The translations under genes were made by a program, and so were the position numbers. DNA of 16,822 nt, from the IMG/VR virus record IMGVR_UViG_2585427743_000008. One strand, given 5' to 3'. Below are positions 14,890 through 16,134 of this stretch, piece by piece; position 1 is the first letter of the stretch; every line of letters begins with the position of its first letter. The DNA is from a virus. Lineage: Duplodnaviria > Heunggongvirae > Uroviricota > Caudoviricetes. Below the pieces are notes generated by a model. The model was not told the DNA's origin, searched no databases, and saw nothing but the letters and a program-made list of their open reading frames with translations.

Positions 14890-16134
14890 TCATATATCAA
14901 TAACAAAAAATGGTTTTTTGAGCGACGTTGCGAATACGTCATCATCGATCTTACCATTGTTTCTAATAAGTACAGTCCCTCCATGATTTTGGATGTTTAT
15001 ATATGCAGATGAATTTGGCGCAACAGAAAACCACCCAAGGATACTTCCATTTTTTATGATTCTATTATACATATCATTTTTATCTAGCCGCTTGTAATTT
15101 GATTGAACTATAACCAGTTCATTGTCTGACTTATCTATTTCAGGAAACAAAGCATCATAGCAAATATATGTTTTTATATTTATACCATTATGGATTATAT
15201 TTTTATTAATAATGTCTTTGTGTATTGTCAGATATTCAGACGTATTATCACCTTCATCCGAAAAATTCCATTTTTGCTCAACAAAAGGAATGAGTGATTT
15301 TTTTTGATTAATAAATGTTTTATCTTTATAATAATAAACCGACACGACATTGTTTATGTTATCAAAACCAAAGAAATTAAATATAAAAGCATGCCGCTGA
15401 TGCATATTGCTTATTTTTATATCGGATATTATTTTTTGTGTTATTTTCTTGCTGAGCTGACTCTTGAATCCATAAATTGTATTTTCTGAGAAAGCCACTA
15501 TATCAATATCATTATTTTCTTTTACAAAGTTTAATAGATCAGAAAGAAAATCTGTAGTATTCCCTCCCAATTGATAATAAAGCCCAACCTGCACTACCCC
15601 TATTTTAATTTTCTGCTGGTAAGTGTTTTGTGTAGATAAATATGATTTTTGAATCAAATACATAAAGCAAAGCGCGAAGAAATAAACAAACATCAACCTA
15701 ATATTTAGAAAAGGAAGCATTGACACAAATAAATACAATAAGAATAAATTAATGATTGGATATGGAATACTGTAAAGAAAATTATTAAATTTATAATACA
15801 ATAATATCAGTGGATTCAATGGCACAAACTTTGCATAACCCGCTGCTAACGTAAAAATTAATGAATGAATGATGACGCTTACTAAATTATAAGTAATGCT
15901 CATCCGATAGGAAAAGAAGTAAACTATATTATATGTAAGCGTGAAGAAACATATAAGTAGTGCTGTATTATCAAAAAAATAAAGAAATTCAGGACCAAAT
16001 AAAAAAAGGATGAAGCAGCATGAATATGCTAATACCCACAATAGATATGTGCTCACTCCATTTTTTTTAGAATAAAAATGCAAAAAGATGAAAAACAAAC
16101 TTAAAAAAACATCAATAGAATCATTAACACTCAT
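14890..16134 (-). CDS. Lnt-like membrane N-acyltransferase (CN-hydrolase/nitrilase superfamily; AatD-like)
   Basis: N-terminal ~165 aa very hydrophobic (about 5-6 TM helices), then a soluble domain with motifs matching the Lnt catalytic triad context: IVAFSENTIYGF (Glu ~217), KKSLIPFVE (Lys ~278/279; Lnt has K-x-x-LVPFGE) and YICYDALFPE (Cys ~325; Lnt has CYE). 414 aa; no C-terminal TM after the hydrolase domain. Confidence 0.75.
   Translation of the reverse strand: MSVNDSIDVFLSLFFIFLHFYSKKNGVSTYLLWVLAYSCCFILFLFGPEFLYFFDNTALLICFFTLTYNIVYFFSYRMSITYNLVSVIIHSLIFTLAAGYAKFVPLNPLILLYYKFNNFLYSIPYPIINLFLLYLFVSMLPFLNIRLMFVYFFALCFMYLIQKSYLSTQNTYQQKIKIGVVQVGLYYQLGGNTTDFLSDLLNFVKENNDIDIVAFSENTIYGFKSQLSKKITQKIISDIKISNMHQRHAFIFNFFGFDNINNVVSVYYYKDKTFINQKKSLIPFVEQKWNFSDEGDNTSEYLTIHKDIINKNIIHNGINIKTYICYDALFPEIDKSDNELVIVQSNYKRLDKNDMYNRIIKNGSILGWFSVAPNSSAYINIQNHGGTVLIRNNGKIDDDVFATSLKKPFFVIDI

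Follow-up and report, generated by a model that had tools for sequence, protein, structure and literature searches.

Background

In enterotoxigenic Escherichia coli (ETEC) H10407 and enteroaggregative E. coli (EAEC) 042, the membrane enzyme AatD of the Aat export system N-palmitoylates the N-terminal glycine of its substrate, the coat protein CexE or Aap, as was shown in 2020-21 for both enzymes (Belmont-Monroy et al., 2020, PMC7478709; Icke et al., 2021, eLife, PMC7943197). In these homologous systems, CexE/Aap is exported by the Sec pathway and then cleaved by signal peptidase I. AatD-dependent addition of a single C16 acyl chain (+238 Da) to the exposed glycine does not need AatPABC, and this acylation is a prerequisite for export of CexE/Aap through AatPABC. 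The ETEC enzyme complements an EAEC aatD mutant (PMC7478709). These papers, published in 2020-2021, already established AatD, its Lnt-like catalytic triad and the part that its glycine acylation plays in the export of CexE/dispersin. The nearest structurally described relative is the housekeeping apolipoprotein N-acyltransferase Lnt, which has eight membrane helices with cytoplasmic termini and a conserved 27-residue lid (L1) between helices H5 and H6; its nitrilase domain bridges H7 and H8, and the C-terminal helix H8 together with the L3 brace tethers that domain (PMC5500888). Here we describe an aatD allele at positions 14890-16134 of a 16,822-nucleotide stretch of DNA (the window) from the IMG/VR record IMGVR_UViG_2585427743_000008, and compare it with these systems.

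Identity of the aatD allele

14890-16134, minus strand: aatD, a membrane-bound, Lnt-like N-acyltransferase; ATG start, 1245 nt including the stop, 414 amino acids (aa)

The gene at 14890-16134 is very likely a full-length, functional allele of aatD, encoding the dedicated N-acyltransferase of an Aat system carried on an ETEC virulence plasmid. A chance reading frame is excluded by its length of 1245 nt in DNA of 28% guanine plus cytosine (G+C), by 30 homologues at E <= 2.6e-47, and by ratios of nonsynonymous to synonymous substitution (dN/dS) of 0.32 in comparison with a second ETEC plasmid lineage, 97.7% identical in DNA, and 0.22 in comparison with an 81%-identical allele on a metagenome contig (L003). 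These ratios stay below 0.35 in both domains of the protein (0.17-0.35 in the C-terminal one), the open reading frame (ORF) is intact in every allele examined, and the identical protein is present on 146 contigs. The protein aligns with H10407 AatD at 75% identity, gap-free over residues 22-414, and with the EAEC "dispersin export-associated protein AatD" (P0021) at 34% identity (E 5.3e-64, 97% coverage). A 95%-identical allele (P0001) comes from pE2528C1_95; H10407 itself has the 75%-identical one.

The names given to this allele in public records are inconsistent. PLSDB-era records carry a 257-aa "apolipoprotein acyltransferase" that starts from an internal methionine, a record of the sister plasmid lineage has a 337-aa "acyltransferase," and the current RefSeq entry is a 414-aa "hypothetical protein" (WP_000115575.1); the name AatD is absent from all of them. 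The allele can now be labelled AatD with confidence, in place of "hypothetical protein" and of the N-terminally clipped models, although this matters little beyond correct annotation.

Catalytic residues and relation to Lnt

The original prediction had named three motifs, IVAFSENT, KKSLIPFVE and ICYDALFPE, as lying in the order and approximate spacing of the catalytic Glu, Lys and Cys of Lnt, and had proposed an accessory, Lnt-like acyltransferase that looks catalytically competent. Both statements hold up in the comparisons that follow. The motifs occupy residues 211-218 (with E217), 278-286 (K278 and E286) and 324-332 (C325), and the spacing from Glu to Lys and from Lys to Cys is 61 and 47 residues, compared with 68 and 52 in E. 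coli Lnt. E217, K278 and C325 never vary in an alignment of 24 family sequences, in which E286 is conserved in at least 90%. When the 24-member profile was aligned by hhalign with E. coli Lnt (a sequence identical to PDB 6q3a), E217, K278, E286 and C325 paired with Lnt E267, K335, E343 and C387; this alignment has a single-sequence template and an overall probability of 0.94% (E 0.058), and was used only for residue correspondence. The motif residues do, then, correspond to the Lnt catalytic triad, and the pairing agrees with the published alignment, in which E217, K278, E286 and C325 of H10407 AatD are named as the counterparts of the same four Lnt residues (PMC7943197). From alanine substitutions of these residues in the H10407 enzyme, the authors of that study concluded that the C-N hydrolase triad is needed for CexE acylation. 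Because the alignment with H10407 AatD is gap-free, the residue numbers transfer exactly to the protein described here, and its triad would be expected to be competent. The codons are:

15484-15486, minus strand: Glu217, catalytic; equivalent to Lnt E267; invariant; mutated in H10407 AatD (PMC7943197)
15301-15303, minus strand: Lys278, catalytic; equivalent to Lnt K335; invariant; assigned from the literature
15277-15279, minus strand: Glu286, active-site stabilising; equivalent to Lnt E343; at least 90% conserved; assigned from the literature
15160-15162, minus strand: Cys325, nucleophile; equivalent to Lnt C387; invariant; assigned from the literature

An AlphaFold2 model built from the family alignment (mean predicted local distance difference test, pLDDT, 85.3; predicted template modelling score 0.86) places the protein in the same structural group. 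In a Foldseek search of the PDB, the top 23 matches are all Lnt, with query-normalised TM-scores of 0.51-0.64 (best 6nwr_A, E 2.4e-10, TM-score 0.64), followed by soluble proteins of the nitrilase superfamily (formamidase AmiF, Nit3, carbamoylases) at E 1e-6 to 1e-7. Identity to Lnt in the structural alignments is 10-13%. At the sequence level, the NCBIfam model TIGR00546 (lnt) gives the protein E 6.8e-6 and 25.5 bits against a cutoff of 132.9, where E. coli Lnt scores 411 bits. Pfam returned nothing at E <= 0.01; CN_hydrolase (PF00795) appeared among noise matches at 12.9 bits (E 0.071) against a gathering threshold of 23.2, and membership in this family is visible only at the level of the fold. 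PDB sequence searches with the single protein and with the 24-sequence profile did not find Lnt and gave chance-level matches only (dCMP hydroxymethylase, E 0.06). With so faint a signal in the sequence, the link to Lnt rests on profile and fold comparison and on the literature. The protein has the membrane domain and the nitrilase-like fold with its triad, and falls outside the Lnt equivalog: AatD works like Lnt yet belongs to the AatD family.

A plasmid-borne spare copy of housekeeping Lnt, acylating lipobox (diacylglyceryl-cysteine) lipoproteins instead of CexE, would show the same fold and triad, and one study reported that Lnt was able to rescue the export of Aap by an EAEC aatD mutant, suggesting some overlap between the two enzymes. 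We nonetheless consider this highly improbable, given the low identity to Lnt, a score far under the equivalog cutoff, and the linkage of aatD to cexE and aatPABC reported for every context examined (aatPABC are absent within the 10-kb contig L003). Furthermore, BL21, which has Lnt and no AatD, leaves CexE unacylated, and AatD-dependent acylation requires no more than one N-terminal glycine.

Genomic context and expression

The genes that accompany aatD are those of an Aat system:

9526-9876, plus strand: cexE-like gene, 116 aa, predicted substrate; 58% identity to H10407 "protein CexE"
10159-11298, plus strand: aatP; ORF, role assigned from the literature
11295-12500, plus strand: aatA, TolC-like; Pfam OEP domains
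12457-13230, plus strand: aatB, periplasmic adaptor-like; weak NCBIfam adaptor matches
13223-13849, plus strand: aatC, ABC ATPase; Pfam ABC_tran
13982-14478, plus strand: pseudogene of an LpxL/LpxP (MsbB-like) lipid A acyltransferase, frameshifted and N-terminally truncated; RefSeq annotation of the identical plasmid sequence

The order of aatPABC (10159-13849) is that of H10407 plasmid p948 and, by analogy, these genes are the predicted export machinery for an acylated substrate. The signal peptide of the CexE-like protein ends in ...FSALA and the mature protein starts with Gly-Gly, so that aatPABC is accompanied by a cexE gene with a signal peptidase I site (...ALA) followed by glycine. The CexE-like protein is 41% identical to a protein that adjoins another aatD allele (L003 8197-8553) and is recorded as a member of the Pfam Dispersin family (PF28204). 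For the CexE-like protein itself, Pfam gave nothing at E <= 0.01 and, at E <= 10, one chance-level match (E 0.57); PF28204 is absent from its matches.

A set of IncF virulence plasmids from human ETEC, among them pTW10722_147 and the ETEC-2265 plasmid, match the aat block of the window (8671-16822) at 99.7% identity, and positions 14500-16400 are 100% identical in 12 of these plasmids. The equivalence with pTW10722_147 is limited to 8671-16822 and does not extend to the whole window. Positions 14500-16400 are 97.7% identical to the second ETEC plasmid lineage, in which the layout is unchanged. G+C content is 28.2% in aatD and 30.0% in aatPABC, compared with 43.6% in cexE and 41.8% in the whole window; the low values are consistent with a foreign origin of the aat genes.

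The aatD gene is convergent with aatC across a gap of 1040 bp, which is filled by the LpxL pseudogene (Pfam PF03279, E 5.6e-15, in ORF 14101-14328) and a relic of the insertion sequence (IS) gene istB, and a fragment of IS3 lies upstream of aatD. The LpxL/LpxP pseudogene is a second lipid-acyltransferase relic beside the Aat system. The placement of aatD varies between alleles: it is convergent with aatC in the window, lies behind pieces of IS1, IS3 and IS5 in H10407 (p948; L011 25173-34731), and on L003 (1-10193, a Joint Genome Institute metagenome contig) is flanked by a chaperone-usher fimbrial operon and a gene of the dispersin family. Judging from these arrangements, IS-mediated shuffling has evidently moved aatD repeatedly without damage. 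In 25% of the aat systems surveyed by Icke et al. (2021; PMC7943197), H10407 included, aatD and aatPABC were over 1 kb apart, so the layout here is not unusual.

Given the convergent orientation and the 1040-bp gap of debris, expression of aatD must come from its own promoter. A promoter and terminator scan around aatD found sigma-70 sites in no greater number than in shuffled sequence. It could be argued from this, and from the intervening relics and the IS3 fragment, that the gene is stranded and decaying: facing the opposite way from aatPABC, out of reach of the operon promoter amid IS and pseudogene debris, and no longer expressed. This is very unlikely, however, as purifying selection has kept the ORF intact in all alleles examined and the layout is retained in two ETEC plasmid lineages with 2.3% divergence between their DNA; moreover, H10407 is among the surveyed systems with a distant aatD, and its aatD knockout abolishes CexE acylation.

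Several points do weigh against the assignment of a functional, dedicated AatD. The experimentally characterised enzymes, from which the functional status of this allele is derived, are those of ETEC (75% identity) and EAEC (34%). In one of the two published mutagenesis studies, mutation of the Cys in EAEC AatD had a weak effect. The sequence-level family models do not claim the protein, with CN_hydrolase and TIGR00546 both below their cutoffs and the PDB sequence searches empty. Lastly, the gene faces aatPABC across pseudogene debris, with no convincing promoter in the sigma-70 scan.

The C-terminus and the adjacent IstB relic

The original prediction noted that the protein, at 414 aa, lacks the C-terminal membrane helix of Lnt, and that its stop codon lies 18 bp from an IstB fragment; it left open whether the short C-terminus had been truncated or remodelled by recombination or is native to the subfamily. 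The length, the missing helix and the adjacent fragment were all borne out. Of the two explanations offered, the native form is the one that stands, and truncation or remodelling is refuted.

14872-14889: spacer of 18 bp between the aatD stop and the ORF of the IstB relic; homology to the H10407 allele persists for ~12 nt past the stop
14722-14871, minus strand: IS21-family istB relic, 49 codons, corresponding to approximately residues 98-143 of 260; RefSeq pseudogene without both termini

The stop codon of aatD is at 14890-14892 (tca on the plus strand), and the RefSeq istB pseudogene starts 15 nt past it. The relic matches Pfam PF01695 (IstB_IS21) with 46.8 bits (threshold 24.1; E 3.5e-12) over profile positions 89-132 of 238, and is 70% identical to residues 98-143 of intact IS100 IstB, with 46 aligned residues over the Walker A region. 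It is an incomplete gene with no adjoining istA, and in its degraded Walker A motif GPSGVGKT has become GHQGRGKN.

Within aatD, mean Kyte-Doolittle hydropathy in 19-residue windows reaches 1.6-2.1 in several segments of the N-terminal 170 residues, and is at most 0.92 everywhere past residue 180 (0.58 for the last 19 residues). The final element of the model is a β-strand at 409-413, with pLDDT of 93-95 in the last two blocks of 10 residues. Residue 398 pairs with Lnt 460 in the hhalign comparison, and the final 16 residues of AatD correspond to the last strand of Lnt.

The homologues end in the same way. All 23 (from E. coli, Citrobacter, Yersinia and metagenomes) stop 0-9 residues from the same aligned column, those of H10407 and EAEC among them, and none extends well past it. 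Their lengths are 397-424 aa, except for two with later annotated starts (365 and 391 aa), and the window protein has the length (~400-425 aa) and the stop right after the nitrilase-like domain that are typical of the family. Its end (...KKPFFVIDI) is at the same position as that of H10407 (...KKPFFVIDV), an enzyme that was tracked via a C-terminal His6 tag in acylation assays (PMC7943197). On p948 and on a further contig, L005, aatD ends at this position (FFVIDV before the stop codon), IstB sequence is absent downstream, and homology to the window ceases ~12 nt past the stop; the IS21 event thus had no part in shaping the reading frame. The 81%-identical L003 allele shares the junction between aatD and IstB and diverges after ~45 nt of relic. 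The presence of the junction beside so distant an allele indicates that the scar is old and that aatD has stayed intact since it formed.

That IS21-associated recombination truncated or remodelled the C-terminus, with loss of an Lnt-type helix and probable inactivation of the enzyme, is scarcely credible despite the position of the relic 15-18 bp past the stop and the tethering role of helix H8 and the L3 brace in Lnt (PMC5500888), since the homologues share this end with or without the relic, the last strand of the model is confident, the C-terminal domain is under purifying selection, and H10407 AatD of the same length is active (PMC7943197). Lack of a C-terminal membrane helix is ancestral in the AatD family, and the IstB relic, in a plasmid region rich in IS elements, is a harmless scar next to the gene that has left the reading frame untouched. 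The IS21 scar can be dismissed as the reason for the short C-terminus.

Domain architecture and topology

15625-16134, minus strand: membrane domain, residues 1-170; from model DSSP, hydropathy, invariant columns and the distribution of lysine plus arginine (K+R)
14893-15606, minus strand: nitrilase-like (C-N hydrolase fold) periplasmic domain, residues 177-414; from the model, fold matches and hhalign to Lnt 165-460

In the model, DSSP assigns helices at residues 3-21, 27-46, 56-80, 84-99, 126-142 and 145-168. A conserved loop of 26 residues (100-125) precedes the last two; it contains a short helix (109-115), and P105, P108 and I110 are invariant. K+R counts, as means over 24 AatD homologues, have the following distribution, with the predicted side of the membrane:

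N-terminal tail: mean K+R about 0; periplasm
Loop H1/H2: mean K+R 2.4; cytoplasm
Loop H2/H3: mean K+R 0.3, acidic; periplasm
Loop H3/H4: mean K+R 0.9; cytoplasm
Loop H5/H6: mean K+R 1.25; cytoplasm

Taken together, the model and the charge pattern suggest that AatD crosses the membrane with six helices and has both termini in the periplasm. When the conserved loop is matched with the Lnt lid, AatD helices 1-6 correspond to Lnt H2-H7, so that AatD probably lacks H1 besides H8 and L3. The TIGR00546 alignment has a different register, with AatD residue 11 opposite Lnt ~65 and two N-terminal helices lost; this register was rejected because it disagrees with the number of helices, with the positive-inside pattern and with the matching of the conserved lid loop.

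We lean slightly toward the view, drawn from the model, that AatD is a naturally minimised Lnt, with six helices and periplasmic termini, without H1, H8 and L3, and with its two domains tethered by a single linker. In a review that presents models of AatD, these are described as "remarkably similar" to Lnt, with no difference in helices listed, and this difference may not be explicit in the AatD literature. If AatD is indeed so reduced, the second tether that Lnt needs for coupling its domains would be dispensable in Lnt-type ping-pong acyl transfer, and the looser architecture could relate to the acceptance of a soluble, Gly-terminal substrate. That H8 and the L3 brace are missing across the family, and H1 probably too, offers a clean natural experiment on the coupling of the membrane and catalytic domains.

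Proposed mechanism

The steps proposed here are drawn from the AatD enzymes of H10407 and EAEC 042 and from Lnt, and are extended to the window allele. The product of the cexE-like gene (9526-9876) would be exported through the Sec pathway, and cleavage by signal peptidase I behind ...ALA would expose an N-terminal Gly-Gly. AatD would reside in the inner membrane, with its nitrilase-like domain facing the periplasm and Cys325 as the nucleophile that carries the acyl chain as a thioester. Transfer of the chain to the α-amino group of Gly1 of CexE may then occur by ping-pong chemistry, as in Lnt. AatP/AatC, together with AatB and AatA, would extract the mono-acylated CexE and carry it to the cell surface. 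The neighbouring CexE variant, with its mature Gly-Gly, is the probable substrate of this AatD.

Surrounding sequence

The left half of the window holds the remnant of a lambdoid phage (2640-6347), flanked by pieces of IS66:

552-2603 and 8703-9371: IS66 pieces flanking the phage remnant
2640-3401: Rha regulator
3501-3980: Rz
3965-4462: lysozyme
4462-4722: P21-type holin
5205-6347: OmpC-like porin gene

Positions 1-7590 have a 98.8% match in the chromosome of an avian pathogenic E. coli. Any single record of the plasmid or complete E. coli collections spans at most 64% of the window.

Comparison with known systems

The closest described system is that of ETEC H10407 (p948; Icke et al., 2021, eLife, PMC7943197), whose AatD likewise has 414 aa, with the same catalytic numbering and the same C-terminal end. 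As in the window, the genes are carried on a virulence plasmid with aatD, cexE and aatPABC. In H10407, however, aatD lies ~4 kb beyond cexE on the same strand with no IstB downstream, whereas the window aatD is convergent with aatC, and the CexE partner of H10407 is only 58% identical to that of the window. The AatD of EAEC 042 (pAA2; Belmont-Monroy et al., 2020, PMC7478709) acts on dispersin/Aap, has 403 aa and ends at the same aligned position; its triad (E207, K268, C316) is that of the window protein. In EAEC, aatD is described as the last gene of an aatPABCD operon, and the regulator is AggR, not Rns/CfaD.

In the wider comparison, the IstB relic differs from the IstB of IS100 and other IS21 elements in being an internal fragment, with its Walker A motif destroyed and with istA and the ends of the element absent. 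In E. coli Lnt (PDB 5N6H, 6NWR), as in AatD, a polytopic membrane domain is joined to a periplasmic nitrilase-like domain, and the two enzymes share the Glu-Lys-Cys triad, the stabilising Glu and a lid loop of ~26 residues before the last two N-terminal helices. Lnt has 512 aa and AatD 414; helix H8 and the L3 brace are absent from AatD, and H1 is probably missing as well. Finally, Lnt acylates diacylglyceryl-Cys lipoproteins, whereas the substrate of AatD is a soluble protein with an N-terminal glycine, and AatD is non-essential.

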